From NCBI GenBank assembly GCA_951406725.2, contig OX597815.1:133982001-134046000 (forward strand): a stretch of DNA of 64,000 nucleotides, read 5' to 3'. This document shows positions 1,821 to 60,841 of this stretch, one piece after another (the first letter of the stretch is position 1; each line of letters opens with the position of its first letter). The position numbers and the translations under genes were made by a program. The notes under the pieces were generated by a model, which saw only the letters and a list, made by a program, of their open reading frames with translations, made no database searches and was not told where the DNA came from. Origin of the DNA: Octopus vulgaris (lineage: Eukaryota).

Positions 1821-3147
1821 TGTTTCCTTGTGACAATAGCTTAATCTCAATATTTTCAGAAAAACTGTAATGGAAAAAAAAACAAAATTACCAAGAAATT
1901 AACAGTTTCCTTTTTTTTTCTTTCTTCTGCGTTATGTTGTGCATGTGTGTGATTGTGTATGTGTGTGGTTAGTAAATTGAGGTAAATCAAAGAAGTTGCG
2001 TCCATGATAGTAAAAAAACAAACAAACAAAGAGAACACAAACAAAAACAAGCTTACTTTTTGACAAGAGAATATAATTATAATATCCATGTAATATCATA
2101 TAGTTGGGCATAAAGCTGAATTCAACCTGCTTTGTTTTTTAACCTTTTATGTGATAAAATTAGATGAGTGTTTTGTATGTATGTTTATTCGTGTGTGTGT
2201 GTGTCTGTTTGTTTTAGATGATAATGTTATGATAAATAAGTGAATAACACATCTTCATAGGTTATTGCCAGAAAGTTCTCCCTCAAAAAATATAAATAAA
2301 ATATAAATAATAATAATTATGATGATGATGTTGATGATGGGTTTTTTTTAATATAAATTTCGACACAACATTATCACTAGGAATATTTAGTTTCTACAGT
2401 AGGTAGATAGTGTACCTCTTAAAAAATATCATCATTCTGTCGTTATACTGATTGTGTTTGACTATGAAGAATGGTATGTGTTGGGGTGGGGGGCCTAGCT
2501 CTCATGCTTCCAATACTAATCATACTGCAGTTTCCTTGCTGTTAGTATTAGAATGATGATTTCTCTGATTAAAACTTGACATTCTTAAAACTACTCCCAC
2601 CACCATCATCTTTGCCTACTCTCACCAGTCCTCTTCTAAAATTTTTCCTTTTTCTTTTAATGGCTCAAGAGTAGTGTTTCCATATGTTTTTATGTTAATA
2701 TTTTAAAAAAAATATATGTATGCCCATGTGTGGTATTGTGTTTATGTATTTCTGCTGTTATGGGTACTTCATGAAGAGAAATCTGGTGTTAATGCAGATG
2801 GGGATTGAATGAATTTATATTATGTGAAATGTATATATTCACACATTTGTGTGTGTGTGTGTGTGTGTGTGCACATGTTCATGTTGGCTATTACAAAATT
2901 CTACCCCTACCCTACAACTCTTGAGTGTTGCAATGTTCAAAAGAACATGATGTTTATAATAAAAGATTCGCTACATCAGCTGCATGTATTCTGTTGATTT
3001 GTACTATATCTGGCAAACTGTTGCTAATCTTTAACTGAGAAACTGCAAAATTTTCATTAAAAATGGTTACATTTATGTTACTTTGATGTCATTATATAAA
3101 CTTGATATTGTTTTGGTGATATAATAGCTTGATAGTACTTACTATAA

Positions 3148-3650
3148 TAACAACTTGATGTCAGTGACATAACAACTTGATGTCAGACACATAACAACTT
3201 GTTGTCAGTGACATAACAACTTGATGTCAGACACATAACAACTTGTTGTTAGTGACATAACAACTTGTTGTCAGTGACATAGCAACTTGTTGTCAGTGAC
3301 ATAGCAACTTGATGTCAGACACATAACAACTTGATGTCAGACACACAACAACTTGATGTCAGACACACAACAACTTGATGTCAGACACATAACCACTTGA
3401 TGTCAGTGACATAACAACTTGATGTCAGTGACATAACAACTTGATGTTAGAGACATAATAACTTGATGTCAGAGACATAACAACAATTTAATATCATTTG
3501 GTGAGATAACAACAACTTGATGTCAGTGACATAACAACTTGATGTTAGAGACATAACAACTTGATGTCAGAGACATAACAACAATTTAATATCATTTGGT
3601 GAGATAACAACAACTTGATGTGATATAGTGACATAACAACTTGATGTCAT
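3148..3650. repeat. 22-bp minisatellite (ATAACAACTTGATGTCAGTGAC)n with a higher-order ~100-bp duplication
   Basis: About 20 head-to-tail copies with no unique spacers. Confidence 0.95.
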
Positions 3651-5806: not shown

Positions 5807-5859
<53 letters not shown>

Positions 5860-6084
5860 ATGTAGGATAAAATTTTTTCGAAAAAAATTTTATCAATGGC
5901 CAGGATATTAAAAAATACCTTTAAAGGTTAAAATTATAAACAACTTATAAACAAGGGCAAACGAAAAAATTTCTAATGACAAATATGCCAAAAAATTGGA
6001 CATATTGTCCATTACCGTATAATTTTTCACAATAAGCATGCTACTCAAAAAAAAGCCAACAGAAATCTCTAAAAAATTCGATTA

Positions 6085-6144
6085 TTACCATATCGGACTG
6101 ATTTCAGGGTTAGTTCGTAAGAACCCTCCCTTCGTCAGTGATAA
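6085..6144 (-). ncRNA. Minimal type I hammerhead ribozyme (copy A)
   Basis: Minus strand: TTATCA CTGACGA AGGG agg GTTC ttac GAAC taa CCCT GAAA TCAG-T-CCGA TA TGGTAA. Intact core, one mismatch in stem III. Confidence 0.78.
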
Positions 6145-6561
6145 ATGTGGCAAAAGAAATAAATGAGATACTTACTCATACCCATGGAAGAAGCAAAACA
6201 CTAAGTCATGAGCACAATTAAGTACCCCAAATACATCCAAAATAGAAATACTCCAGCCCATTCAAGACACGTGCGATTTGAACTGAGGCTCTCACAGAAT
6301 GAGAGAGTCCAGAAGTGAACACTTAAATTTATATTTAATGTAGGATAAAATTTTTTTCGTAATAATTTTATCAATGGCCAGCATATTAAAAAATACCTTT
6401 AAAGGTTAAAATTATAAACAACTTATAAATAAGGGCAAACAAAAAATTTCTAATGCCAAATATGCCAAAAAATTGGACATATTGTCCATTACCATATAAT
6501 TTTTCACAATATGCACGCTACTCGAAAAAAAGCCGACAGAAATCTCTAAAAAATTCGATTA

Positions 6562-6617
6562 TTACCATATCGGACCGATTTCAGGGTTCGTAAGAACCCT
6601 CCCTTCGTCAGTGATAA
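6562..6617 (-). ncRNA. Minimal type I hammerhead ribozyme (copy B)
   Basis: Minus strand: TTATCA CTGACGA AGGG-AGGGTTCTTACGAA-CCCT GAAA TCGG-T-CCGA TA TGGTAA. Intact core, stem I of 6 bp, stem II, palindromic stem III. Confidence 0.82.
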
Positions 6618-7117
6618 ATGTGGCAAAAGAAATAAATGAGATACTTACTCATACCCATGGAAGAAGCAAAACACTAAGTCTTGAGCACAACTAAGTATCC
6701 CAAATACATTAGCTTGCTAATGTCCGTTTGGGACTCGCGGAGCCTTCAGCAGAACAGGCGCACATGGAGAGGTAAATATATTTTCAAAAATTGTTTATGT
6801 AGTAAGCTTAGCTGATGAGCTTTAAGTGTCAATTCACCACAGAAAGTAAAATCAATTGATACTGGGATATCTATCCTCCTCTTTGTAGTTTTACAAATGG
6901 GGACAACCATTTTTCTAAATGTATTTGCTATATTCTCCATGCGCCTTTATATATAGTCAGAGATATGTGGTTTGGGAGAGTTTTAACTCTTCTTTCAAGC
7001 TAATGGGTACATATTGTATCCTGACTTTTAATATATTATTTGCATATTCGGATTATGTTTGCTGGCCATTTTATCATTATTTTTTAAAGATAATGATAAC
7101 TTATTTGAATTTTGTTT

Positions 7118-7165
<48 letters not shown>

Positions 7166-7556
7166 CAATACATACATACATATATTAATTCAAATAAACT
7201 GCAGATATAACAGAAACACATTACACACAGATGTATGAAACGAATTTGCATATACACATACACACATACATTAACAGCAATTTTTTAAAATACACTGGTT
7301 GCTAAAACGTACATATCTGAGTCAATTAAGGGTCAACCAACACACTGAGTGTAGCTCCTTTTGTATTGAATTCTTACCCTGGAGAAATACCCATTTAATG
7401 ATATTTGATATGAAAATTTAAATTAATTTAATTCTTTAAATTGAACTAATTAGGCATGGAAACAACTATAAGAGCAAAGAATTTGATATTGAACAGATTA
7501 TGTTCAAATAAATTGATATCTCCGTTTTCTTTTTCTGTTACTTAAATGATATATAT

Positions 7557-8422
7557 TAGATCTGATCAATAAGTATACGGACTGTTGCCATAGTAACAAA
7601 GCTAAAGCATGCAGAGTGAAGCTGCTTGGCAAAGATTGACCTTGAACACTGCCGTGCATGCACACTAAGTTTTAACATTCTAGCTCACTTCTGCTGTTTG
7701 CAGCAGCGCTTGAAAGGAAGGTGTGTAGTGTGTGATTTTCGCATTGACTATGACAGAGAAAGTTGTCATGGTGATACCTGCTCAGAGGCCTACACAAGGT
7801 TGCAGAAAGTGTATGGAGAGGAGTGTATAAGCCACACACAAGTGTACAAGTGGTTCAGATGTTTCCAAGATGGCTGAAAAAATGTCGATATTGACAAATG
7901 TTGTGGGGAAACCTGAAACCAGTGCAACTGAGAAAAACATCGCAGATGTGCATGCAATTGTGAGGGGGAAATCATTGAATCACCATCCACGAGTTATCAT
8001 AGGATGAGCAGATTAGTTATGGTTCAGTTTAGTTCATTATCACTGAAGATTTGGGTATGAGATGTGTGTTTGCCAAAACTGCTTTCAGCTAACTGAAAAG
8101 ACACCCGGCTTTCAGTTGCACAAGTTTCCTTAAATTGTGTTGGGAACAATAAAACCTTTTTGAAAACTTTGTGTATGCCTCTGAGCAGGTATTGCCAAGC
8201 TTTTGGCAAAATTTGATGTTGATTCTCTGCTCAACTTTCTCTGTCATGGTCAATGTGACGATCACACGCTATACACCTTCCTTCCAAGCACTGCTGTAAA
8301 CATTAAAACTTCGTGCATATGCACAGCAGAGTTCAAGGTCAATCTGTGTCAAGTGGTTTCACTCTGCATGTTTTAGCTTCGTTACTATAGCAGCAGTCTG
8401 GATACTTATTGATCAGACCACA
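7557..8422 (+). mobile_element. Defective mariner-type DNA transposon with ~125-bp imperfect TIRs
   Basis: Left end tctgatcaataagtat...gattgaccttgaac is mirrored at 8300-8420, in TA context. Mos1-like HTH remnant SEAYTRLQKVYGEECISHTQVYKWFRCFQDG. Confidence 0.88.
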
Positions 8423-8613
8423 TATATATATTTGAAAGAGTGTGTATGGTAGCCTGCAATATCTCTAGCAGATCAATAAACTATGCAAAGATTCTCTCAT
8501 TAAATGATGGATTGGTCAGTTGTTGCTTAGCCCCAGGTAATTCTGAATGAGCATACTTTTGACCAAAGGGACTATCTTATCCTTTTCGGCAAGATTACAA
8601 TATGACTATAATA

Positions 8614-11172: not shown

Positions 11173-13106
11173 ATATACAGACTGATAAACACATAATTAC
11201 ATACATGTATGCATTCAGAAGCAGAGAGAGAGATACATAGGTTATTAATACAAATGTAGGTAGATATTTAGATATATATATTTAGGTATATATATTTAGG
11301 TATATAGATACATGAGTATGTTGGTAAATAGATAGATATTAATATAATCGAAAAGTTGCTATGAAGGTAGCTATATACATACATAGGTAGATAAGGAGGT
11401 AGGTAAATAGAATGGTATAGTAAAAGATAATGGATAACCTCATAAGTGGATAGATACATACAGTTGTAGAGATAAATAGATAGACAGATAGATAGATATA
11501 GAGTGTGATACAAACATACATAGATAGGTAGGTTGATTAATAGGTATGTACTAAAGTAAGAGAAAATAAATTGCTTTGTCTATTTCCAGAGGAAGGAAAA
11601 ATAACGGAACATTTGAACTAAATGAAATGTCCATAAAGACATAACTATAAGAGATTAACTATATATGAGTTTCTCTGAGAGATAGGAATAAATAAATGGC
11701 TTATATTGTTAACATAATCTGATGATGTGCATGCCAGAGTATGTGGTGGAGGTGGTAGTGGATGGGTTGACCATTGTGGCTATTACATGCCCTTTATGTG
11801 TGTGGACAATTCTGTATTTGTAAGTATATTTCTTCCTAAAGTAACTTTTCTGAAACACAGATTGCTCTCTCTTTCATTCCATGCACAGATGGACACACAC
11901 ATACGTGTGTGTGTGTGTGTAGGTAGTATAAATCCTGATAGGGTAGAAAGTCAGTGTATTTTCAATGCAGCACTCAACAAAAAAGCGTTGAAAAAAAATA
12001 TATGTATCATAGAGCCAAACTGACAAAGAACATCTCCAAAACCCAAAAAACAAATTCAACTCCAGGTCTTTTTTTTACTAACTCATATATAAAAGGTATG
12101 AATCTTCTATAAGAAATCATTTATGATGAATTCCTGGAAGCACTAAATAAGTAGTTTTTATCCAAGTGCTGACTACCTTCTTTTTCTTAATATATATATT
12201 TATATATCCTGTTTCAGTCACAAGACTGTGGCCCTGCTGGATCAACTCCTTGAAAAATTTTAGTCAAACAAATTGACTCTAGTATTAACTTTATATATAT
12301 ATATATATAAATGTGAGTGTATGTAGATGCCAATAGAGTAAACTGATAAACCAGTTGACTTTACAACTGAATCCTATCTAACATGCATGAGTATATGTAT
12401 TATGGCTAAATGGTTAAGAAGTTTGCTTCACAATCATAAAGTCTTGTGTTTGATCTCTACACGACTCACTAATGACAACTATCTTTGCCTTGAGTAAAAC
12501 CCTAAGCCTTGTGAGTAAAATTGAGTAGATAGAAACTGTACAGAAATCTATCAGATGGATTGTGTCTGCTGATTCTGTCTGTGAATTACATTAAACCTAC
12601 ATGTGTCTGTGTAGAGATACATGGCTTAGTGGTTATGGTATTGGCCTCATGGTTGTAAGATTGTGGTTTCATTGTGTTCTTGAGCAAAACACTTCATTTC
12701 ACGTTGCTTCAGTCTAGTCATCTGGCAAAAAAGAACTGTTCTTTTGACAGAACAGTATCCCATCCAAGAGAGAGTATATATGCCAGAGAACCTGGGCAAC
12801 CAGCCCTATAAGTCTATATGACTGAAGAAAGTGCTTTATCTTATTGTTTTATTTGTCTTTGGAATACTCAACCACTTACATGCCATAGAGTGAAATGGTA
12901 AATCAGTTGACTTTACAACTGAATCCTCATTTTCAAAACTAATGGATATCCATTTTGTATTCTGTATATATATAGGTGTATGTGGTTGTGTAATTAATTA
13001 GAAGTTTGCGTCCCAACTACATGGTTCTGGTTTCAGTCCCCTGCATTGCCCCAGGCCAATCAAAGCCTTGTGATTGGATTTGCTAGACACCAACTGAAAG
13101 AAGCCT

Positions 13107-13107
13107 A

Positions 13108-13203
<96 letters not shown>

Positions 13204-13206
13204 CCC

Positions 13207-13245
<39 letters not shown>

Positions 13246-13247
13246 AC
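13107..13247. repeat. (CT)n(CA)n compound microsatellite
   Basis: Seen directly. Confidence 0.97.
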
Positions 13248-13429
13248 AAAGTAGAATTAGAAATAGAAAATTCTTGGTGTAGTATTATATATTTGAAGAA
13301 GTGCATAGGAATGGCTTTTCTGGTAATCTTATTACTTTAATAATTAGCAGTTTATAAATCATTGGGTGTATATTTATTGAAGTGGAAAAATGGTCAGAAA
13401 ATCTATTCCTATTCATTTCTTCAAATATA

Positions 13430-13651
13430 TGCAAGTGGGTACTGAAAAGCTCCTGGCTTTAAGAGTATTACAAAAGGCTTGGTTGGAGGCCCAACCTTTT
13501 GAATTCTTTTACAGGGCTTAGAAAAACTGAAGGGCTGCCACAATAACTGTGTGAATCCGAGAGGGGAATATGTTGAATAAAATCATAATTAACTGATCCT
13601 CCAGTATTTTCTTTTTACCCAAAGCCAGAAACATTTTAGCACCCCTTTGTA
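13430..13651 (+). mobile_element. mariner-derived MITE
   Basis: Imperfect TIRs (gggtactgaaaagctcctggcttt / aaagccagaaacattttagcacccc) and mariner C-terminal remnant CVNPRGEYVE*. Confidence 0.75.
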
Positions 13652-13899
13652 TATATGGGTGTGTATTACTGTTTCATCACCCTGACATCACATGATAGTT
13701 ATAAATGAACATCACTGTCATGCAAGTGATATCTCTCATTTCTAATCTTATGTGAGAAACATGTCTAGTCATAGTGAAAATATAATCTTTCTTGGAAACA
13801 GAAGAAGGGCATCTGGCTGTAGAAAATATCCCTTATCAAATTCCACCTGACCCTTTCAATCAGGGGAAAGTGGACAATAAAACAATGATTATGATAAAT

Positions 13900-14115
13900 A
13901 TTGGTTTCAAATTTTGGTGCAATGCCAGTAAGTTCAGGAGAAGGGGTTAAGTTTATTACATCAATCCTAGTACTCACCTGGTACTTATTTTTTCTATCCC
14001 AAAAGGATGAAAGGTAAAGTTGACCTCGGTGGAATTTGAACTCAGAACATAAAGACAGACAAAATGTTGCTAGGCATTTTGCTTGGCATTCTAACAATTC
14101 TGCCAGCTCATGCCC
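13900..14115 (-). mobile_element. tRNA-derived SINE, family B
   Basis: Reverse complement of gagctggcagaa...ctgagttcaaattccaccgaggtcaacttt. Confidence 0.8.
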
Positions 14116-15072
14116 TGATGATGATAAATATTAAAAGAATGTACTCTGTGCTGTTACCTCTTTATATTTGTAAAGATTTATTGTGGGAATTGGAAGAATT
14201 AAAGTTCCAGTCTTCATAGTGACCACTGGTTTCCTCTCAAGATGAGAATCTTCGTTCAGATGAGTGAATAATGGTGAAATCAATGTTGTATTTTTAGGTG
14301 ATGGATTTGACTGGGAGTTAGGTATTCCAGTTGTGTGTGATATGTAGGTGAAGCATTTGTTGGGAGTGAGGGGGTCGTGTTTGTATTTTTATTTGTATTT
14401 TTCTGTTAATGCAGATGGTGGTGTTGTGTGTGTGTTTTCAAATGTGTGTGTCTACATTAGTTTGAACAACAGAGACTTTTGGTCATAAAAGATTATTATG
14501 GAGGATTATGGATTTTTTTGGCAAGTTTTAATGTTGGTTATCTAAGAATAGTAATTTGGTTATTATTGGAAATGAAAAAGAATAACAGCAACCAACAAAA
14601 TTTCTCTATTATGGGAAATGGAATTAAAGGTGTGGTAGAATAAAAATTTTAGGCTGAAGTATTTTTTCTGTGAAGGTCATTGGAGGTAAGTGAGGTAGTT
14701 TTCATTGGGAGAGAATGTTGGGAACATTGTGTTGGGCTAGAAAAACGATGTAATGTGCTTGTGTGCATGCGTGAGTGCTTATGTGTGTGTGCATGCACAC
14801 GTGTGTGTGAATGGAGGGGAGAGTAAGGAGGTGATCACTTCATACAAATAAAGTTTAAGACTAACTAAACATAGACACACACACATATTCTCTGCATATG
14901 AGCATGTATGCATATAAGTACACAGTATAGTTATAAATATGCGCATACATTGCAGTGAGCATATGCATACACACACTGCATAGTTGTGCTTGCATGAATG
15001 TACACGCAAACACATATATTTATGCATACATTTTATATATATGATATATTTCTCTCTCACACATACACACTA

Positions 15073-15105
<33 letters not shown>

Positions 15106-16149
15106 ATATGTATATACATACACACACATACACACAAACACACACTCATTATGTATACATATAAATATCATGTACACATCTCATACACAACACACATTTA
15201 TATTACACACACACACACACACGCACACATTTTGCCCATGCAGACATACATACATACACTAATTCACACATCCTCGAACAATTTCAACAGAAACATCTCC
15301 ATTGATATATTGTCAATAATATTCCCTTTTATGATTCCTAAACATCCTTTCAAGTGACAGCAGAGCAACAATGAGAATTCACATGAGGTATGGTCTGTTC
15401 TGGAAGGAAGGAAGTGATATCTGACAGCAGATGTTAGGCATCTTGGTGGTGATTGTTGTTGCTGTTGTTGTTAATAAACAATGTACCACTTGATGGATGT
15501 ATCCTCATTGCTCTGATCCAATTCATGGATATATCATTTAAAATTTTTAACCCTTTTTACTGTTGTATATAATGGCAATTGTTTCTCATTATTGCTAGAA
15601 ATATTTGGTACACAAACACAATTTCATTATACATTGTCATCATCATCATCATCATTAATGTTATTGTTATTGCTCTTATTGAGAAGAGTGATGAATTGGC
15701 AGAATTGTTTGAGCATCTCACAAAAATGTTAGAGTATTTCTTCAAGATTAGAGAAGGAACTCATCAACTGATTAAAAGTAGCGAACAGGAAAGCATCACT
15801 TGCAATGTGCTTACAGTGAGAATAATTGTTAACCACTTCCCAGATGCAAAATGCATTTTAGGGTAAGCACTTGTGTGCTGGTGAGGGCTCTGAATGCAGG
15901 AGTCAGTGTCTCATCAAACAGTGAAGCAACCTCTTTAGATGTTTTGGCCTTGTCCACCATGACACTGGACCTAATGGGGTCACCCACCAATGCAGGTGAC
16001 ACAACTCCTGCATAATAGCTTGAGCTTTGTTGAGTCAGATGTTGTGATTTTGAGCTGCTGTTTCTATCATTCTCAATGTTTGATCTTATGCACATACTCA
16101 TTCTAGGGCACATACTCTGGAACACAAGGGAGTGAAACATCATTCAATG

Positions 16150-16500
16150 GGTATTGGTGGAGGAAGTACAGCTTGGCAGTGAAGTTAGTGAACTACAGCA
16201 GACATGTGCTGTTTGATTCCAAGCATATATTAATGATTTTCCAGTAGCTCTTTGCTAAGCTGTATGAGAAGAGCAACAGACTGGAGATAGTAGAATACAA
16301 TACCTTATTCAATGATATCCAGAGATGATTCTTTACCGAAGACTCAATACTACAAGAAACTGATTTCAGCAGAAGTAGTCGATGTGTTGAGCAACTGTGG
16401 AGTGGCAAATCAGTGAGACTAGATTGTCTTTCCTTGCTAGGCTGGTTCATAACTGTCTTGGCAGCTGTTTATTGTAACTGGCAGTAGACTGAGAATATTC
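16150..16500 (+). mobile_element. Highly decayed L1/Tx1-like LINE ORF2 remnant
   Basis: Frameshifted peptides IFQ*LFAKLY and ISAEVVDVLSNC-GKSVRLDCLS resemble the GKSPGxDG motif preceding the RT domain. Confidence 0.4.
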
Positions 16501-17182
16501 AAAGTCATGTAAGCAGAGGAGGAGTGATGCTGTTGAGGAAGTACCCTAACAAAGGAAGAACACAATAGGCAACATCAGATCCATAACTTCATTCAAAGCA
16601 GAGTTAAAGGTTTATGCAAGGGTGCTTGTTTGCTGAAAGATTGGTGCTTATCCATGATAGCCTCCCCGCCTCACATGATACATCATAGAGCAAGTCAGGA
16701 CTAGGTCTGGCTTTGATGGGACTCAGATTAATTCAGATCATTCTGAAGCAAAGCACAGGGTCAACCAACATTATCTAGTAACCTTAAGACCAATAAAAGA
16801 AATCATCATCATCATCATCATCATTATTATTATTATTATAATGGTGAGCTGGCAGAATCATAAGCATGTCAGAGAAAATATTTCGCAGCATTTCAATGAA
16901 ACCCAGTGGTGATATCATTTTTAGTTCAAATTCCTCTGAGATGGACTTTGCCTTACATCCTTTCGAGGCTGATAATATAAGTACCAGCTGAGCACTGGTG
17001 TAAATGTAATCAGCTAACCCACTGCTCCTAAAATGTTGATGGCCTTGTACCAAAATTTGAAATTATCGTCATCATTGATACTTCACCTTATTCCTTTGTT
17101 ACATTAATTTTTCCTGTTTGTTGTCTCATAAACCATCAATATTATTATGATTTAATTCCATACCTTTTGATGTCTTTGCAGG

Positions 17183-17272
17183 ATGGAGGAGATGGTAAGC
17201 AGTATGCTCCATTATAAATCCAAAGTTGAACAATTACGGCAGGAAAGGTTCAATTTGTCGGTGACTTATGAG
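17183..17272 (+). CDS. NCKAP5-like gene, first visible coding exon (MEEMVSSMLHYKSKVEQLRQERFNLSVTYE)
   Basis: Acceptor tctttgcag|G at 17182, ATG at 17183, donor GAG|gtaagc. 90 nt, open, coiled-coil-like, in frame with the next exon. Further upstream exons may exist. Confidence 0.8.
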
Positions 17273-17324
17273 GTAAGCTAAATTTCACTGCTACTTCTTG
17301 GTTCCTTTCTATTCTTTCATCTTC

Positions 17325-17688
17325 TTTTCTTTGACTTGTTTCAGTCATTAGTCTGTGGCCATGCTGGGGCACCACCTTCAAAGGTTTTAGTTGAACTGAT
17401 TGACCAGGACTTATTTTTATGTCTCATATTCTATCAGTCTCTTTTGCTGAAACAGTAAGTTACAGGGATGTAAACAAACCAACACTAGTTGTCAAACAGT
17501 GCAGGACCCCCACACACACATACACACAATGGGCTTTCACACAATTTTTGCCTACCAAATTCACTCACAAGGCATTGGTTGGCTCAGGGCTATAATGGAT
17601 GACACTTGATGAAGGTACCATGCCGTAGTATTGAACCCAAAGTAATGTGGTTGCAAAGTAAGATTCTTAACCACACAGCTATGCATGT
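17325..17688 (-). mobile_element. SINE family A, diverged, antisense
   Basis: cttgtttcagtcatt...gccatgctggggcaccacc...cactcacaaggcattgg...aaccacacagc. Confidence 0.82.
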
Positions 17689-18445
17689 GACTACTATTTA
17701 ACTTTCTTACTTTTCAAGATGGCAAGCAGCAGAATTGGTAGAGCATTGACTAAAATACTTTGTGAAATTTAGTTATGTCTCTTTAGGTTCTGTTTTCAAA
17801 TCCTGTGGTGGATGATTTTGCTTTTCATCATTTCAAGTTGTTAATAAACTAAGTACCAGCCAAGTACTTAATTGACTGGTACACTGGGATAGTGAAAATA
17901 GATAGTATAAGTGCTTTGGGTATTGAACTCACGATGACTAGATTTGATTCTGGAATAGAGTGATGCATTGAACAAGACCTTTCTTTCTAATTGCTTCAGT
18001 TTACTCAGGTAAAAACTGAATACCAGTGATTGTTGGTGGGTGAATTCATATGACAGACTGACATCCTATGCAGAGAGGAGTTTTGTACTTTCAGTTGTTT
18101 AAATGCCCATACAGAATGGGATATATTGTGGCATAATAGGCCTGTACATTTGTGACAGACTTGAGTACTGGGATCAATATAAATGACTATATGTCACTTT
18201 AAGATTTTTGACCTTGTTCCAATGTTAACCCTTTAAATTCCAAACCAGCCTGAGACTGCCCTTAGTTTTGTGGTACAGACTTCTTGTTTTAGGAAAGATC
18301 TAACTTAAAAGCTTCCATCGAATTCCCATGTTCATTTACATTTTAAACACCAGCTTAATAATGACAGATATTTTACTAAATTCATTATTTACAAAACTAA
18401 TTGAAACAAAGGCAGTGTATTTCAACAGAAACCTTTCTTAACAAA

Positions 18446-18619
18446 GGCATAGGAGTGACTGTGTGGTAAGTAGCTTGCTTACAAACCACATTGTTCTGGG
18501 TTCAGTCCCATTGCATGGCACCTTGAGCAAGTGTCTTCTGTGATAGCCTCGGGACGATCAAAGCCTTGTGAGTGGATTTGGTAGATGGAAACTGAAAGAA
18601 GCTGTCGTATATATGTATG

Positions 18620-18652
<33 letters not shown>

Positions 18653-18846
18653 ATGTGTTTGTGTTTGTCCCCCAACATCGCTTGACAACCAATGCTGGTG
18701 TGTGTACGTCCCCATAACTTAGCGGTTCAGCAAAAGAGCCCAATAAGTACTAGGCTTACAAAGAATAAGTCCTGGGGTCGATTTGCTTGACTAAAGGCGG
18801 TTCTCCAGCATGGCCACAGTCAAATGACTGAAACAAGTAAAAGAGT
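18446..18846 (+). mobile_element. SINE family A, full length
   Basis: Near-identical to 10773-11172. Confidence 0.9.
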
Positions 18847-19481
18847 AGTGTGTGTGTGTGTGTGTGTGTGAATAAATGTATATCAATAATACAGTTGAAG
18901 TTAAATATCCCAGAGAAATGTTCTGTATAGTAAAATTTTGCATGTGTAATATTGTTGTCATGTATCAAACGTTTTTGCAGCATGTTGATCTCACTATAGC
19001 AAAAATCTTCTTGATTAAATACAAGTTCTCAGATGAAACAATAACATTACTTCATTCTGACTTTCTCAAAATGTTTTCTTGGCAAAGATATTGCAGTAGT
19101 TTACCATTACCTTCCCCAACTGGATGGCTGTTGGCCCACCACAAGCTTGTCTGGCCTTCAATAGGTCTTGTTTTTAGTCCTGCTGGGTGTCCATATACTC
19201 TTCTCACAAGAGTCAGTTTTAGTTGCCAATTATAGGTAGTACTAGTTTATAGGGTCCAAATAATAGGTCTCTTCAGTGTGTGATAAGATTTCCGACCTGA
19301 CTAATAGATGTTATATACTGAATCAAGAAACTTCAATTAGTTGAAATTATCTAAGCAATTAGTAAACAAAAACGTCCTCTTGGAGTACTTAAAAAATGCC
19401 AATATCTGTCATTTCAGTTTGAATTATCAAAATGTATTTAACCAGATTAATGTTATTCTCGCCTCTCCTCTCTTTCTTCAG

Positions 19482-19571
19482 GAAAACTTACAGCAGTACC
19501 GTTTACAAGTTAGTAAGTTGGAAAGAGAAAATATGATGTTACTAAATGACTACAAAAAATTACAAACTCAG
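19482..19571 (+). CDS. NCKAP5-like exon 2 (ENLQQYRLQVSKLERENMMLLNDYKKLQTQ)
   Basis: Polypyrimidine tract plus ttcag acceptor, CAG|gtgagt donor, 90 nt, phase 0-0, heptad pattern. Confidence 0.88.
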
Positions 19572-21098
19572 GTGAGTATAAGTTTAACAACTTTATTTTA
19601 TTTCATGGATTACACCTGTATTGACTTCATAATTACTGTTGACAAATTGATTAATTGTGCCTCCAATGTAGCAGGGGAGTGCCTATTGGGCAGATGTGTT
19701 CTATGTCTAATTTTTAATTTAATTGCTGATTCATCTACAAAGTACAAGAATGAATCTTCCTCCTCCTCATCTTATCATCATCATTATTGTTGTTGTTCTT
19801 CTTCAGGCAGTGAGCTGGCAGTAGTGTTAGAGCATTGAACAAAGTACTTATTGGCATTTTGCTGTCATTAAGGACTTCAAAAAGTTAAAGACTTGGTCTA
19901 AATGCTTGCAACAGAGTAGAATCCAATAAAAGCAGTCAAGGACCAGCTGTTGATGTTACTTCCTAAATATTGAACTGTTAATATCCTGCTGAAAATTTTC
20001 TAAGTCAAAAGCCCAGTTCTGTAATGATTCTGTTACAGAATAAAAATAAATTATAGAGGAAGGGATTAGAATTTTGTCTCTTATATTAGATAGTTCCTTA
20101 CTTCCATCAAGATGGACTGTTTGACCAATGCAGTCCCATACAGTAGTGTGTCATACAGGACATTAAGAGTTAACTACAAACTAACTAGATTCTTATTAAT
20201 AATATTGATTTTTATTGCTAAGTGGTGGGCTAAAGCATTGAAAATCAAAGGACACAACACATTGATGATGATAGTAATTGAGTTGCTAGTCTTTGGCTTT
20301 CTGTTGCTACCCACAAGCATACTATAAATGTCCTCCCATGTGATCCAAATTATATAATAAAAGCTGGGGTTTGGGGTTTTTTTTTTTTTTGGCCTGTGCT
20401 GTTTATTTTTCCCGAAAATTTCAAGCCCTTTTTTTCACCGCTCATTTTCTTTTTTCTTTTTCTTTCCTCTTTCCTTCTTTGCCAGGCAACTAGTGCAATA
20501 TTAAAAAATGACTATGACACACAAAAATAAAACACTATTTAGCGTGAGATCAACAATATTTTATCTCTTTTGGCAAATGCAAGTAATTTTTGAAATATCA
20601 TCTTTTCTATTCATATAACTGGGAACAATTTTCTTATACTCAAGTTTCACTAACTGTTCATCTGAGAAAATTTTGTGCAAATTTGATGCCAAGTTTTTCA
20701 AAGCAACACAGATAATTTTTTCACATCTTTTAGGACTGTTTTATCCATGTTAGTATTTATATCATACTTATATCTTCTTGAATGATCTTCTGGGAATTTT
20801 GGTAGGATTAGGTAGGGTAAGGGTAGTTGAAAACTACTTCTAAACTGGCAACTTCATCTGATGTAAAGTGATGTTGTACTTTTTAAACATGGGCTTGGAG
20901 GAAAAGATTTCAAATGCCTTTTTATCAGAATTAACCTGTTGATAAACATATCTCTCAAATAATACTTACAGGATTAAAAAATGAAGTAGATACAGGATAA
21001 TTTTCTTCTTTTCAGTTACTGAGTTTAGAAAGATTTTAAAAATTTGAAAATACTTTCAAAAAGGTTTCTCTCTCACTCACTAAATAATATTTGAGAAT

Positions 21099-21218
<120 letters not shown>

Positions 21219-21594
21219 CTTGTGTTTCTATAAGCAATATTCCAGAACACTTTGATTTAAAAACCAAAATACAAATTATTTTTATTCCAGAATTTTGGAA
21301 ATAAATAATTTTCTCTTCATCCTCCTTATCATGTTTAAGACTTTATTTCTAAGTGCTCTACATCCTCCCTTACTCATAATTACATGCTCATACATACAGA
21401 TTTTAAATCAAACGGAAGATTTTTCTCTTTTAGGATTTCATTGGCTTGCTGTAGGTGAAATGAATAAAAGATTGAAGCAACTCATAATATATTTCTGATC
21501 TTAATTTGTCAAGTCTAGGTGGATGAAGTTAAAACAGCTATTGACGCTTGAAATCAAGAAGTTATACTAAAATGTACCCAATTCTGTATTTCAG

Positions 21595-21765
21595 TGTTAC
21601 TCTTCTGAGCATCATGAAAACCCACAGCAGTTACTGGAGCAGATTAAAGTGTTAGAAGCAAATAATTCTTATTTGCAGATGGAGAATGAACAACAACGGA
21701 AGGAGTATGAGAAATATGTAGATGAAATTGCTAACCAGGTGGTGCAGGCAGTGCTTGTACAGAAA
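21595..21765 (+). CDS. NCKAP5-like exon 3 (CYSSEHH...EYEKYVDEIANQVVQAVLVQK)
   Basis: ttcag acceptor, AAA|gtaaga donor, 171 nt, phase 0-0. Peptide closely resembles the vertebrate NCKAP5/NCKAP5L coiled-coil motif (YERCLDEVANQVVQALLTQK), recognised from memory. Confidence 0.92.
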
Positions 21766-22140
21766 GTAAGATATAACTGTTATTTCAAAGTTTTCATTCT
21801 GTGCATCATTTCTTAGATATGATGTGATAAGCTTGACTGTGTAGTTATAAAATTTATTTCTTATCTGTTTTGTGGCTCAGTTTCACTGCATATAACTTTG
21901 GACTTGGATAGGTGTCTCTCTTCCATAGCTTCAGGTTGACCAACACCTCTTGAATGGAGTTTAGTAAATAGAAACTACAGAAGCCTGTCATATATGTATA
22001 TACATTTTTATGTAAGTATGAGGCACAAGTATAGTGGTTAAGAAGTTTGTTTTGCACGACATGGTCTTGGGTTCAGTCTCACTGTGTGGCACCTTGGGCA
22101 AGTGTCTTCTGCTATAGTCCCAAGCCAATGAATATATATG

Positions 22141-22443
22141 TGGAGGCGCAATGGCCCAGTGGTTAGGGCAGCAGACTCGCGGTTGTACGATTGCGGTTTC
22201 GATTCCCAGACTGGGTGTTGTGAGTGTTTATTGAGCGAAAACACCTAAAGCTCCACGAGGCTCCTGCAGGGGGTGGTGACGATGCCTGCTGTACTCTTTC
22301 GCCACAACTTTCTCTCACTCTTTCTTCTGTTGGCCTGCTCACTTAGCCAGTGGGGTGGCGTCATTTGAAGGCTAAAACAATGCGAAGCGCATTATGACCA
22401 GTGATGTGTAGCAACATCTGATAGCCTGGTCGGTCACGGTGAT
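22141..22443 (+). mobile_element. tRNA-derived SINE, family C, GC-rich, inserted in (TA)n
   Basis: Head ggcgcaatggcccagtggttagggcagc...ggtttcgattccc with A and B boxes, TA runs on both sides. Confidence 0.8.
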
Positions 22444-22859
22444 ATATATATATATAACTAATTGCCTGTAACAATTCATGTTTCATCATAGTAAGATTTT
22501 TTTATGTTTACAACTGTCATGTAAGGCATTAGAATTTATATACTGTGCTAAATTTTGTAATGGTTTTTGGTCTAGTAAAACTAATATTGGTTTCAGTTGT
22601 ACTGTTGTCATTTATTACCCCATTATTTTGGTTGTAAGCAGTGATATTGTTTAGCATGTTATTTGGGTTGATGCTGATGTTGGTATATTTGTTCTTACTA
22701 TGAATGAGATACCAGAGATTTTGAGATTTCATATTTTGAAATTGTCATTAAAGTTGGGAGATTTAATTTACTTATCCTCTGTTAAACTCTTTGTTAATTT
22801 TGTAATTAGAATAAATTTGATCTGTGGTCCCACATTTCTGCCATTTACCTAAAGAGACT

Positions 22860-23085
22860 TAAAAATCAAACATCCAGTCATCATGGTGTTTGGAGTGATC
22901 ACTAGTGATGATGACGTTATACCTCCATTCATCTTCCCACACATCCTCAGACTCAACACAGAGACCTACATCAAGTGCCTGGAGGAGGTAGTGCTGCACT
23001 GGGTGCAGAGCGTGGCTGCTGGAAGACCCTATGTCTGGCAAAAGGACTCTGCACCATGCGACACAAGCAGGAGAACCCAGTCAGA
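22860..23085 (+). mobile_element. Tc1/mariner (DD37D/maT-like) transposase fragment
   Basis: MVFGVITSD..IPPFIFPH.LRLNTETYIKCLEEVV...YVWQKDSAPC.TSRRTQ, the catalytic-domain QDxAPxH region. Confidence 0.85.
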
Positions 23086-23383
23086 AACTTAAAATGATGC
23101 TATCTTTGAGGGTAGAACACTGAAAGCAATGACAATACTAAATGGATATATAAGGGGTATATATTGCTGAAAGGTGAAATGACAGATTATTAGAAGTTTT
23201 CAGAAATGATTTTCAAAAAGTTACCCATGAGAATTAGATATTGGAATGGTGGTCTGCAATCCCTAATGAGATCTGGTGTTGTATATGTGCACTTGTAAAT
23301 TTGTATCTGTGATTGTATGCATCCATGCATACTTACACATGCAATTGATATTTCTAACTTGTTTACTGATCTGCTGTTTGCAG

Positions 23384-23503
23384 GGCTTGAAAGAAGAATG
23401 TTGCCAACTGCAGGAACGTGTTCATGACTTAGAAGTTCAAAACAAACAACTTAATTTGTTGTTTCAACATCACTTTCGGTTTCCGAATGAATCAACAACT
23501 AAG
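23384..23503 (+). CDS. NCKAP5-like exon 4 (GLKEECCQLQERVHDLEVQNKQLNLLFQHHFRFPNESTTK)
   Basis: tttgcag acceptor, AAG|gtaaaa donor, 120 nt, phase 0-0. Continues the NCKAP5 motif (cf. DLREECVKLKTRVFDLEQQN). Confidence 0.92.
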
Positions 23504-23879
23504 GTAAAATTTTACATCATATGTTTCTTTTTTTGTTTTCTTCTTTGGTGCTGGGATGGTTATATGATTATTTGATTGATAAGCTTGCTTCCCAACCATG
23601 TGGCTTTGGTCCCACTGTTTGGTACCTTGGGCAAGTTTCTGCTGAAATTGTCCCAGGCTAACCAAAGATTTGTGAGTAAATTTGGTGGTTGGAAACTGAA
23701 AGAAGCCCTTTATATATATATATATCATCATCATCATCATCATTTAATGTCTGCTTTCCATGCTGTCATGAGTTGGAATGTGTGTGTCTGCATGTGGACC
23801 CTTGTCTTGATATCACATAACAGTTGCAAATGAGCATCATCATCATCATACCAGCAAAGTTCTCCATTTCCTGGTTTCT

Positions 23880-24112
23880 TATTTCTTTATTGCCTACAAG
23901 AGGCTAAACATAGAGGGGACAAACAAGGACAGACAAAAGGATTAAGTCGATTACATTGACCCCAGTGCGTTAACTGGTACTTAATTTATCAACCCCGAAA
24001 GGATGAAAGGCAAAATCAACCTCGGCTGAATTTGAACTCATGACGTAAAAACAGACAAAATACTGCTAAGTATTTCACCCGGCATACTAACATTTCTGCC
24101 AGCTCGCCACCT
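23880..24112 (-). mobile_element. SINE family B with 13-bp target-site duplication
   Basis: TTTCCTGGTTTCT at 23867-23879 and 24113-24125. Confidence 0.9.
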
Positions 24113-25357
24113 TTTCCTGGTTTCTATGTAAAAGATATTTATCTACAGTAAAATATCATTACCTTGCTTGGAAACAGGTGAGGGTTGGCAATAGGAAGAG
24201 CATCTGGCTGTAGAAAATCTGCTTCAATGAATTTCATCTGACGCAAGCATAGCAAAATGCCTGTTAAATGAGGATGATTGTTTGATATTGTGGTTCATAT
24301 TTTATACTGTTGTTCTTCCTATCATTTCATTTCACATTCATTTCAATGTTGCTTAATCAAAGCTAAGCTCATTTTTCTGCATTTTCACTGAACCTTATAA
24401 GGTCAACAGAAATTAATCATTCCCAAAAAAGACAATCATTTAGGGCAGTAAACATCGTGGTGAAGACCTGTCTGCTGCTCCCCACTCCCACCCCAAGAAA
24501 GTAGCAGTTGTTGTATGCAGTATGTATTGTTATATAGACAACTGTATTCTGTATAAGAAAGAACACCTGTATATTACATTCTATATTATGTCTATCTCTT
24601 TATTTTGTCTGTTGTCAGCAGTGAGACATATGGTCAAACTGAGAGAACACTGGTCAGCTGGCTGTAGAGTCAATAGTTTATTAAATTTTGTTAATAATCT
24701 TGTATTAACCTGTAACAAAGCAGATACCAAGGAAGTCACAAGTTACTGCATAAAGCAATTCTTTATAAATGGCAAGTGTTTCACTTTGTAACAATACCTG
24801 GAAGTGTATATAGTGGGAAGCTTAACACATGCTACCTTGTTTAGCTCCATCACCTGGTAGTTTCCCCAATCGAGGAAGGCCTGCAAAGATCATGGGTACT
24901 GCTCATCTTTCCCTGGCCAACTTCAAGTTATACTCTATGTCTTAGAAAGGTAGGACACTTGGAACATTCTGCTTTTAGGTATACAAGGTCACACCAGGAA
25001 TCCCTTTCATCATAGGCCAGTTCAATTAGTGGTGAACCAGGACTAAATGCTACCAACAGCACTTATCATAGCTTGAAACCAATTCCTCCATATCCAGTGG
25101 CTTCACACAAACACATTCACATAAATGAACAAACACCAATATACACATCCCTTAAGAATTAGAAAAGCCATACTTAGAATAAATTATTTATTAACCATAT
25201 ATTTTCATATTATTTAACACTGTACATCTGTGACAGATATTATCTTGGGACAAACACTGCAGTTAATTAACCCTTTCTTGGTATATTTGCATTGAATATG
25301 ATACACAGATTGCTATTTTAAACTAATCTATTTAAATTTCTGTAATTTATTTTCCAG

Positions 25358-25501
25358 TTGCCGTGTCTTGAAACTTATGTCACTGATGGAAATGAAGTAA
25401 ACATTGAAGGCAGAAAATTATCATTGTTAGATTTTGCTTCTTCAGCTGGAATGATGTTTGACAAAGGAGCAGAATCTCTCCAGAGTCTTTGTAGCCATTA
25501 T
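25358..25501 (+). CDS. NCKAP5-like exon 5 (LPCLETYVTDGNEV...SLQSLCSHY)
   Basis: ttttccag acceptor, TAT|gtaagt donor, 144 nt, open, phase 0-0. Confidence 0.78.
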
Positions 25502-27469
25502 GTAAGTATACATTCTAAAGATTCTATCACTACTCTGTAAAATTTTCACACACACATGCACACAAATTCAGCGAAACTAATTTTGGCAAAAAATGGGAAA
25601 AAAAAATATAGTTAATGCAAAAGGGTTATAAATTGAGAGAGGTTTGCGTACTTTGAAGAGAGATGTGTCCTGGCATTTCAAAGAAAGACCCAACCTGAAA
25701 TATCAGAATTTATCTCTTCTTACAACACATGAACTTATTTTATGAATTTTAATAATTCTGATCCTAGCTTCTTAAGATGGATGACACCTCTCACTTGCAG
25801 ATGTCTTCTTCAAATTTAATCCTTCACAATGTAGCAACAGTTAAGGTAAAGCATGGAGAAAAATTAACAAAACATTATTACCGAGGATATTTAGCAGGCA
25901 TATTCAAAGACTCAGTCTTCAGTGACACCATTCTGTTAATAAATGTCAGTGAACCAATTATTATAACCAAATGTTTGCATTTTGTTACTAGTACTATACA
26001 GCATCTGTGGCATGTTTACTTGACTCTCAATGCACTTGTGTATATTGGTATAAATAGGTACTGTGAGGTGGTTTGTGTCATTGTTTGTAAACAGGAAGAT
26101 AGGAGTATTGTTTAAACAATAAATAATTAAATTAAATCATTAAATTATTTGTACTGAATTAAAACTTTTCCATATTCAAAAGATGCAACAGAAAAAAAGA
26201 AAAGAAAGAGAGAGAGAGAGAAGGAAAAAGAAAGCAAGTCTCAGTTACAATAACAACAATAACAAAATGTTTAACTCCATTACATAATGCAGATTGGATG
26301 AATGTAAAAGAGTCTAAAATTGAAAAGATTATTAAAAACTAGTAATGTTAGGCCCAACAGATATTGCTGGCAAATTTTGTGTGCATCAATGAACAGCCAG
26401 CTGCTGGTGTGTGTGTGTGCACATATGTACTCAAATAAATCAATTGATTTCTTCTAACAAACCAATTACATTATACAATTTTATTACAAAAATTAGCTTT
26501 GGTTTACAATCAAAGTTAAGATGCCAGTGAGTTGGTAAGGGTGGTTTGGTATGATATAGAATATTTAATTTTACAATTGGCTTGAAGGACAAACTAAAAT
26601 TATCTACATTCTTAAGAGATCCAATCCTGTTTAAGTCTTGGAAATTAACATTTCCCTTCATTTCTTCCATGTTTATTATTATCAACATAATTATTGTTAG
26701 CAGTTGACATTGTTCTGTGTCCTTAGTCAAGGTCTTTTAAGTCTTCTTTCCTATAGCTTCATGACAAATCAGGAAATCCTGATTATAACTTACCACCATT
26801 TTGTCCCTTGTATAGTAGTATGACATACATTATATGGACCTTACCTTCCCTTTACTCTATATACTTTGTAACCCATCTGCTCACCTAAATCCTTTTCATG
26901 CAACCATTTCTCTGCCCCACAATCTTTAACACTTATACATATCCCATACTGAGCTCTTATGTCTAATTCTTTTTCACCAAACTTGAAGGTTAAGAGGTTT
27001 TACATGAGTGAATTTATATTAAAAATAAAAAGAAATACTTTGAGAACTTTATCTTGAATACAAGAAAATTTTAGTCATACTGTAAAGGGAAGGAAAATAC
27101 ATTGAAATAAATTAATCTTCCATGATACACATTTTGGAAGTTCACGTCTTTTTTTCTTACCAAATCCATATGACAGTGGTCATTGATCTCCTTCTGATTG
27201 CTGCTTTCAAAATTCTGTTATTTTTTCATGGCATGGGTATATTAGTTAGATAATGAAGAGAAAGTCAATGTAATGAGACTTATTGCTATGATTTTGTTTC
27301 ATCACCAGGTCTTTGTTATATATACTGTCACTGTTAGTTCATTGGTTTAATGTCTTCCTTGATACAAAAACCTCGCTGCTAGTTCATTCTTAAAAATTTT
27401 CTCGTTGCCATCTCATTGCTAATATATTCTTATAGTAAAGTATCCTCATTGCTAGTACTTTTTTTTTAT

Positions 27470-59085: not shown

Positions 59086-60734
59086 TACACACATACCACC
59101 ACCATCGTCATATAACTTCCATGTCCCATGCTACTATGGGTTTGATGGTTTGACAGGATTCGAAGGGCCTGAGGACTGCATGGTTTCACTGGGTTATGGT
59201 TTGAATAACTGAATCAGTTCTATTAAATGCATTTCTCTCATTTGCAAATCCAAATGCTTGTATATATACATATATATACACACAAATACCTACAGAGACA
59301 CAGTCCACCCTACCAAATCTATTGAGAACTTTTTCTCTGTTTTGTACATACTTTTTTATCATTAGTTTTATATGAAGGAAAGGTCATGCTCATGGCCTCT
59401 ACAAATCTTTCAATATCCATGAGGCAGTCATGGTTACAGTCTCAGGTGAGCAGTTGCAGGAGGGTGAAAATCTAGAAGGCTGACTTCCTAAGAAAGTACA
59501 ACTGGACAATGTGTGGTAGTAATGGTGATAGGAACATATGGGTGACAAGTGAAAAAATGAGTTCAGAGTGCTTCAGTAGAGGCAGTACAAGAGCAGGCAG
59601 TTCTGAGAAGTGAGGCCACTGAAGTAGATAAGGAAAAAACAAGACACAGCATATCTATGGCCCAGAGGTTTGAGAATATATAGTATTTGGCAGCAACTTC
59701 AAACCAATCAGTGCAGCCTTGGATGTCTGTTTCTTGTTGTAGCAACACTGTCCCAAATGTGGGGAGGTATCCCATGGTGGGTGGGTATAAACCAATTTTT
59801 GTAAAGAGTTATTGTTGGGAGCTGAAGCATTTTCTAGCTCTAAAGAAGGAGGTTAATCTTTGTGATGCAATCTTTGGCTCTACCAAGGATGTGTTTCTGT
59901 TGGAAGACTTCCTCACCATCATCTCATTTAACATCCATTTTCCATGCTGGCATGGGTCGGACGCTTTGATAGGAGTTGGCCAGCCAAGATAGCTGTCCAG
60001 GCTCCATTTGTCTGTTTGGGCATGGTTTCTATGGCTGGATACCCTTCCTAATGCCAACCACTTTACAGAGTGTGCTGCATACTTTGTACATGTTATCGGC
60101 ATGGGTACAGTTATGTGGCACTAGTACAAGTGCATTTGCATGAGTGCATTTTATGTGATGATAAAGTCCAGCATTGGTGGCAATCACAAAGGCTGTAGTT
60201 ATGCGCTGTCCTTGTTGGGATCAGTGGCGGAATCAATGGTGTTTTCTTGATATGTGCAGTAATTGTGTCTTTGCAAGTGTTCAAAGTGACAAGACTGACA
60301 TAATCCCATTGAATGATGATGTTGAGGTCTCTGTGATCATGGAGTTAGGGTAGATTAGGTGTAAGGGTGTCTAGGTTGCATGTGGATGGCACTAAGCTGC
60401 AGATGGAGAGGAATGAAGGGATTATCAGCATAAAAATGTGTCTTTTGAAATGACAGCAAATAGGTCACTGATATGTATGAAAGAGGAAGAGCGTAGGCAC
60501 ATAACTGAGCTCTAGGAGGCACCAGGATTGTTAGAGTATGAATCAGAGGGAGCTTCATAAGTAATCACAATAATGGTGTGATCTAAACAAGAAACCATTA
60601 ATCCAAAAGCAAGACAGAGGGATCACACAGATGAGCAAGTTTGCCAGGTTTGTGTACCAGGCTGTCAAAAACTTTGTTGATATCAAGGGCAAAAGTGTGG
60701 AGAGAGAATATAAAAGCTTTAAAGCAACACTTAC

Positions 60735-60841
60735 GTTCTCCTGAGACGTGTAGACTAGAAAAGATCTTAACCTCTGCTCCATTTTCTTTTACTTTATCCA
60801 CCAAAGCAACATAGCGCTGTCGCTTTGGAATATCCCTGGAT
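60735..60841 (-). CDS. PELO: pelota penultimate coding exon (SRDIPKRQRYVALVDKVKENGAEVKIFSSLHVSGE)
   Basis: ttcctttag acceptor, AAC|gtaagt donor, phases 2 and 1 consistent with neighbours, hallmark IFSSLHVSGE. Confidence 0.96.

Follow-up and report, generated by a model that had tools for sequence, protein, structure and literature searches.

The window, a 64,000-nt stretch of Octopus vulgaris contig OX597815.1, contains on the minus strand at 5852–6709 one whole insertion arm of a repeat family, in which a non-coding 477-nt unit, circularly permuted, runs through 1.8 turns. The arm is 5′-truncated at 6709, and its 3′ end corresponds to the "long" end of the family. The first-pass annotation had described this segment as two direct repeats, and this pair was confirmed (5852–6236 and about 6330–6709, with 94% identity). 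The 93 nt between them (6237–6329, minus strand), taken for a spacer, were not unique; they are the last 93 nt of the 477-nt unit and were found in other copies. No match to the unit other than 5852–6709 was detected within the window. The 3′ end of the arm enters a (TA)n microsatellite at 5811–5856, which is the likely target site. The segment at 5852–5934 (minus strand), flanked by the 3′ end positions of the short type (about 5935) and of the long type (about 5852), constitutes a tail of about 84 nt of the type known from Penelope-like elements (PLEs). At the other end, the arm is joined head-to-head, with a 5-nt microhomology (TACAT, 6705–6709), to one full unit of a second, 408-nt hammerhead family on the plus strand (6710–7120), which is 90.5% identical to its family majority and runs 3′ into (TA)n at 7121–7158.

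Each repeat of the 477-nt arm carries on the minus strand the elements that had been pointed out, namely, helix I (TTATCA/TGGTAA), the core CTGACGA, GAAA, and an AUA triplet, and a distance of 477 nt separates the predicted cut sites 6568/6567 and 6091/6090. The predicted cut-to-cut monomer (6091–6567, minus strand) has the unit length of the family. In copy B (6562–6617, minus strand), the core (6611–6605) and GAAA (6582–6579) are intact and helix III (6579–6569, ATCGGTCCGAT) is palindromic; 4 nt are deleted from the helix II insert, and helix II was predicted to be out of register, the AGGG/CCCU pairing having a probability of about 0 when the segment was folded alone. In copy A (6085–6144, minus strand), the core (6138–6132) and GAAA (6105–6102) are also intact, and helix II is as in the family, with a probability of 0.72–0.99 for the AGGG/CCCU register, likewise obtained for the family majority; here, a G-to-A change at 6099 breaks the palindrome of helix III. 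Of the features that had been assigned to both copies, the palindromic helix III was found in copy B only, and the AGGG/CCCU helix II was predicted for copy A only.

Window copies A and B alone (2 of 123 copies) have C opposite C in the stem that closes helix I. The predicted costs of forcing the hammerhead fold were 13.4, 11.0, and 6.0 kcal/mol for copy B, copy A, and the family majority, respectively. The suggested check against Rfam Hammerhead_1 (RF00163) returned no hammerhead family at this locus with E up to 5 and up to 10. The window arm differs from the majority by 3.4% (median of family arms, 4.0%; n = 105). Copies A and B differ from each other by 3.8% and have five non-majority bases in common, suggesting that they stem from one template lineage. 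Because both copies have structural lesions, the proposed release of a 477-nt monomer or circle by this locus is doubtful. The window copy has decayed since insertion and, judging from the predicted folds, is probably a poor ribozyme; the locus is probably without function. Assembled contigs from four sequencing runs, possibly of RNA, covered the repeat at the family level only; none spanned the locus or had usable ends, and they weigh neither way on transcription or circles.

A search of the octopus genome with the unit yielded 3232 first-look candidates, 40 of which were scored. Exact matches in the genome numbered 176 for a two-part hammerhead pattern and 282 for a 37-nt motif lying downstream, and no match was obtained with the reversed control in either case. 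The 176 matches against none for the control indicate that the hammerhead pattern is not due to chance. The genome-wide copy-number check proposed earlier therefore revealed a dispersed family, with hundreds of sites or more. In total, 137 loci were analyzed as three sets: 29 best DNA matches, 27 loci found by the hammerhead pattern, and 81 loci found by the downstream motif. The last set was drawn from the first 100 listed places of the motif and is the least biased. Twelve fetched loci were excluded as duplicates. The family-majority unit is 477 nt long, includes the sequence at 6237–6329, and is AT-rich (33% GC) and non-coding (longest stop-free frame, 65 codons); its circular fold has a z-score of −6.55 (60 shuffles). 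The largest arrays comprise about 3.2 units (locus L010). Two complete tandem hammerheads were found at 1 of the 81 downstream-motif loci, 11 of the 29 best-DNA loci, and 1 of the 27 hammerhead-pattern loci; their rarity in the first, least biased set counts against the retrozyme reading given below.

In the fold of the family majority, helix I has 6 bp and is closed, beyond a 3×3 internal loop, by a 3-bp stem. Helix II, of 4 bp and with A-U rather than the usual G-C at its base, bears a distal hairpin as well as an internal loop. Helix III is formed by an 11-nt palindrome. The calculated energies of helix III were about 0 for the monomer hairpin, −13.9 kcal/mol for the two-copy duplex, and −7.7 kcal/mol for the pair of window copies B and A; the difference between duplex and hairpin indicates that the palindrome favors a dimer. 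Conservation among genomic copies, the lack of which the annotation had named among the grounds for rejecting its ribozyme, was observed in the core: mismatches amounted to 1.1% in the core vs 4.7% elsewhere (11 of 989 and 1524 of 32146 non-CpG cells, respectively; base-matched permutation P = 0.002). This count covered 110 loci, none chosen by the hammerhead pattern, in which the mismatch in helices I and II was only slightly under background. Among 92 copies not selected on the core, 73 had an intact core, and 43 had an intact core and all helices intact. According to these mismatch counts, the catalytic core is under selection in the 477-nt family. As for stem covariation, U-A was replaced with C-G in the helix II insert of 9 of 131 copies, and A-U with G-C at the closing pair of helix I in 7 of 123 copies from 5 loci; each compensatory change may be a single inherited event.

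The motif had been classified as a minimal hammerhead. It resembles the min-HHR of PLEs, as described in the accessible part of PMC4209133, in its type I topology, the palindromic helix III region, and the expected action as a dimer. The min-HHR, however, has little or no helix III, a helix II of 7–8 bp, a helix I of 4–5 bp, an extra base 9.1, and G10.1-C11.1, none of which was found in the family majority. Under that definition, the 6-bp helix I with its closing stem, the 4-bp helix II base, and the 11-nt palindromic helix III make the label "minimal" wrong; as modeled, the motif is a canonical-sized type I hammerhead with extensions. It also differs from the hammerheads of the autonomous PLE families sampled in the same genome. 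Lunse et al. 2017 reportedly dealt with PLE hammerheads that cleave as dimers, and a long palindromic helix III may already have been described there.

The 137 loci contain 234 arms, of which 200 have canonical 3′ ends, 105 at the long site and 95 at the short site. The short site is located about 84 nt upstream of the long site, and both are TATA-like in the unit. The 3′ ends enter TA tracts (168 of the 200 canonical ends) and not poly(A). The 78 head-to-head pairs comprised 56 short+long, 2 long+long, and 1 short+short pairs, and 19 pairs with a non-canonical end; hence 56 of the 59 canonical pairs combined a short and a long end (P = 6e-14). Truncation at the 5′ side was variable in position, with 5–33% of arms stopping per 21 nt in bins with 10 or more arms at risk. 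In PLEs, one of the two inverted repeats may bear a tail, according to the accessible parts of PMC3846280 and PMC8557442. The tail of a Poseidon PLE lies between two internal reverse transcription (RT) starts, and both target strands are cut and extended (PMC11167929). The 477-nt copies, with their inverted 5′-truncated arm, tail on one arm only, and microsatellite insertion, have a PLE-like insertion signature. They share partial tandems, microsatellite targets, an internal RT start, and microhomology at 5′ junctions, as well as the inverted 5′-truncated arm and one-arm tail, with endonuclease-positive PLEs (Neptune and Penelope/Poseidon; PMC3846280, PMC8557442, and PMC11167929, accessible parts), and differ from these in having no ORF and a tail of about 84 nt instead of 30–40 bp. 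Mobilization by PLEs is thus suggested by the insertion pattern and not by an identified partner family.

The annotation had offered two affiliations, a retrozyme and a PLE pLTR. In support of the former, the tandem unit is dispersed, non-coding, and AT-rich, its type I hammerhead is conserved, and its palindromic helix III favors a dimer. Animal non-LTR retrozymes, as presented in the accessible parts of PMC7229834 and bioRxiv 10.64898/2026.07.22.740005, likewise have tandem units that are low in GC, strongly self-paired, and without coding capacity and that carry a type I hammerhead; they occur as dispersed monomers with few dimers or multimers alongside autonomous PLEs and have a dimer-type helix III. 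The 477-nt unit agrees with non-LTR retrozymes in being strongly self-paired and without protein coding and in having a GC content under 45%. Retrozyme units are 170–400 nt in PMC7229834 and 51–972 bp in the bioRxiv report, compared with 477 nt here. Unlike the animal retrozymes in those texts, which have a helix III of 1–2 bp with a short loop, the family has an 11-nt palindrome, an extra hairpin in loop 2, and A-U at pair 10.1-11.1; its two-ended tail and (TA)n targeting are not described in the accessible parts of either source. The bioRxiv report, in its accessible part, proposes that animal non-LTR retrozymes represent non-autonomous PLE derivatives and gives a pLTR homologue for 21 of 57 Xenopus retrozyme families, whereas none was found for the 477-nt family in four PLE families. 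All the features tested point to a new non-LTR retrozyme family, for which cleavage and circRNA formation are predicted.

In the reading that we consider likely, what lies at this locus is a 1.8-unit insertion, partly decayed, from a protein-free 477-nt family that has conserved its type I hammerhead and shows a PLE-like insertion pattern. The family would be a non-LTR retrozyme that the reverse transcriptase-endonuclease of a PLE copies in trans. Loci with at least two units would be transcribed on the hammerhead strand, and adjacent hammerheads would pair via the 11-nt helix III and cut as a dimer, the monomer probably being circularized. A PLE protein would nick both (TA)n strands and, on each strand, prime RT at one of the two fixed TATA-like internal sites, which are separated by about 84 nt; both the fixed positions of the ends and the pairing of one short with one long end were observed, and the enzyme is what we infer. 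Synthesis of cDNA would pass the ribozyme cut site, as observed in the copies described below, and may exceed one unit. Finally, truncated 5′ ends would be joined head-to-head or to the flank via microhomology, such as that observed at this locus.

The predicted cut lies after position 145 of the unit. Of 123 canonical-end arms in the downstream-motif set, 57 reach position 156; 1 of these stops within 141–151 and 5 within 136–156, and 52 pass 135. Because cDNAs pass the cut site, a cleaved linear monomer is not the usual template, and a circle or an uncleaved multimer is likely. The strongest rival reading, which we place somewhat short of an even chance, accepts the same family and PLE mobilization and holds that the template is an uncleaved linear multimer, with template jumps regenerating its length and no circle, and that the hammerhead acts at a different step or needs a protein to act. 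This reading accounts for the read-through of the cut site equally well. It also agrees with the in vitro behavior of the Poseidon PLE, in which cleavage was not needed, uncleaved RNA was the dominant substrate and main template, and no RNA ends were at the cut site (PMC11167929). In the accessible part of bioRxiv 10.64898/2026.07.22.740005, only 1 of 9 Xenopus retrozyme dimers was cleaved. At L012 and L028, both tandem units have an identical helix III lesion, which again favors an uncleaved multimer; however, the lesions affect CpG sites and may have arisen in parallel.

Selection on the hammerhead core argues against an uncleaved multimer. Moreover, 5′ truncation would shorten the arrays in each round unless length were regenerated, yet the arrays at L010 reach about 3.2 units; heavy truncation combined with arrays of this size suggests that a circle or template jumps restore the length. 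Tandem units in one locus were closer to each other than background (median 5.0% vs 7.4%; 28 of 31 comparisons), as were inverted arms (4.4% vs 7.5%; 54 of 56), comparisons from the same locus not being independent. On balance, we rate a circle as the template a little over even.

We consider it improbable that an autonomous PLE family outside our sample has this unit as its pLTR or 3′ end and that the copies are its ordinary truncated stumps. All insertion hallmarks are PLE-like, and many PLE families lie outside the sample, given that each PLE protein search produced 12,000–26,000 candidates, of which 104–150 were scored. Against this, arms extending beyond the tail-to-hammerhead distance wrap into the same 477-nt unit and not into an ORF, and none of the 78 unpaired arms showed a shared non-unit 5′ extension or, with two PLE protein queries, a sense PLE ORF within 400 nt. 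On the 5′ side, none of the arms enters a shared body bearing an ORF, and the suggested linkage to RT and GIY-YIG ORFs was seen at 0 of the 78 unpaired arms and not beside the window copy. In four autonomous PLE families (young Neptune-type, young 775-aa, and two AT-rich families; 30 loci each), no DNA match to the unit was found except co-located copies. As no RT/GIY-YIG ORF is linked to it, the unit is not a pLTR on present evidence.

Among the PLE families sampled, the Neptune-type family (L062–L096) is very young, its 104 scored matches having a protein identity of 98–99%. Its tandem units measure about 4.5 kb, and it has a CxxC linker; Pfam RVT_1 scored above the cut-off and GIY-YIG below it. 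The minimal hammerhead of this family has a fixed CUGUUGA core, with U at the normally invariant A6, at 29 of 29 parsed loci. The 775-aa family (L187–L216), also young, showed 100% identity over 240 aa in 150 scored matches and two 3′ ends 32 nt apart, at 16 and 8 of 30 loci, which parallel the ends of the 477-nt family; a hammerhead scan of its loci was negative. The hammerhead of a further PLE family (L217–L246) has a helix III with a 6-nt palindrome and, in its core, the U3-A8 variant TTGATAA. One of the 78 unpaired arms, at L046, is joined head-to-head to a truncated Neptune-type PLE. A co-insertion was considered here and rated down on arm age, the PLE arm being 0.6% from its family and the repeat arm appearing older; the junction is weak evidence for a partner.

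It is very unlikely that the unit is a satellite-like or SINE-like repeat with a vestigial hammerhead, spread by DNA-level duplication or by LINEs. The tandem arrangement and the damaged window copies would suit such a repeat; fixed 3′ ends, short/long pairing, variable 5′ truncation, and inversions do not arise from unequal crossing-over, and the 3′ ends run into TA tracts, not poly(A), so that the insertion-end data already largely refute it. Least credible of all is a host-regulatory ribozyme antisense to the downstream gene, because the window copy, although about 13 kb 5′ of plus-strand coding-like frames, is one of hundreds to thousands of copies with typical divergence (3.4% vs a median of 4.0%) and carries damaging private changes. 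Since the family is dispersed, the position of this copy near a host gene looks incidental. The name NCKAP5-like given to that gene was not upheld, as no such Pfam match was found in the seven window ORFs scanned and the Atlas gave no lead; naming of the host gene via Pfam, PDB, and Atlas yielded no name.

The 408-nt family adjoining the arm has 105 candidates in the genome (L297–L336). It is non-coding and includes head-to-head pairs; about 80 nt separate its two 3′ ends, and its circular fold has a z-score of −7.3. The window unit of this family contains a third, decayed hammerhead (6807–6866, plus strand), with the core CTGATGA at 6812–6818, a helix III formed by a 10-nt palindrome (ATCAATTGAT), and an AUA triplet; G12 is replaced by A at 6848. 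A single co-insertion of the 477-nt and 408-nt arms was considered. Both arms are long-ended, a combination seen in 2 of 59 same-family pairs, and they differ unequally from their respective majorities (3.4% and 9.5% for the 477-nt and 408-nt arms, respectively); two events are therefore more likely.

A third family, found on the minus strand of L139 and at L247–L266, has 179 candidates, an 8-nt palindromic helix III (ATTGCAAT), an AUA triplet, a variable helix II insert, and two TA-linked ends, in the same layout as the other two; no PLE ORF was found at the L139-type loci scanned. Homology between the 477-nt and 408-nt units was not significant, as 20% of shuffles reached the tail score and 8% the whole-unit score, and only 1 of 6 copies exceeded its own shuffles in the comparison of the 477-nt and L139-type families. 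The retention of the fold with different stems in three families supports the hammerhead structure and does not imply common ancestry. A TGGCCA motif was noted in the tails of all three, about 20–35 nt past the short 3′ end and followed by a hairpin; its being common to the three families is treated as a lead only. Hammerhead-like motifs with palindromic helices III of 10 and 8 nt were also seen at L294 (+2576) and L056 (−2471), respectively, and possibly represent further families.

In a broader proposal, which we advance tentatively and rate well short of even, the genome would harbor a radiation of at least three protein-free retrozyme families with a long palindromic helix III and tails of about 80–95 nt, circulating as RNA circles and copied by a PLE protein that primes one (TA)n strand at each of two fixed sites. 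If this is true, the strict short/long pairing and the cut-site read-through would prove directly from the genome that the PLE machinery reverse-transcribes retrozyme circles and needs no pLTR homology to do so. Both the mobilizing enzyme of animal retrozymes and the choice between a circle and another template are stated as open in the accessible parts of PMC7229834 and PMC7761336, to which bioRxiv 10.64898/2026.07.22.740005, in its accessible part, adds co-occurrence and pLTR homology, mainly in vertebrates. The 477-nt family adds evidence of a different kind, the insertion pattern, with near-strict PLE tail asymmetry, no stop at the cut site, and a protein-free unit. The value lies in this family-level evidence on partner and template, not in the window locus itself. 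The in vitro assay of PMC11167929 could test both partner and template form, since the RT starts and the target are defined and several young autonomous PLE families exist in the same genome.

No description of the 477-nt family or of cephalopod retrozymes was found in the papers covered. The word "ribozyme" does not occur in the main text of PMC13282606; the family may be cataloged under another label in the supplement or repeat library of that report, in Repbase, or in Dfam. In the giant squid, 235 Hammerhead_1 matches are given in the accessible part of PMC6962438.

Three other features of the window were observed. A minus-strand frame at 60601–60912 has a weak match to eRF1 domain 3 (E 0.005, below the cut-off), and we take it to be possibly an exon of a pelota-like gene. 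A tandem array of a 22-nt repeat with a 98-nt higher-order duplication occupies 3081–3640. At 7542–8436 lies a large inverted repeat, the arms of which (7542–7765 and 8232–8436) are 83–87% complementary, possibly a head-to-head insertion or a MITE.
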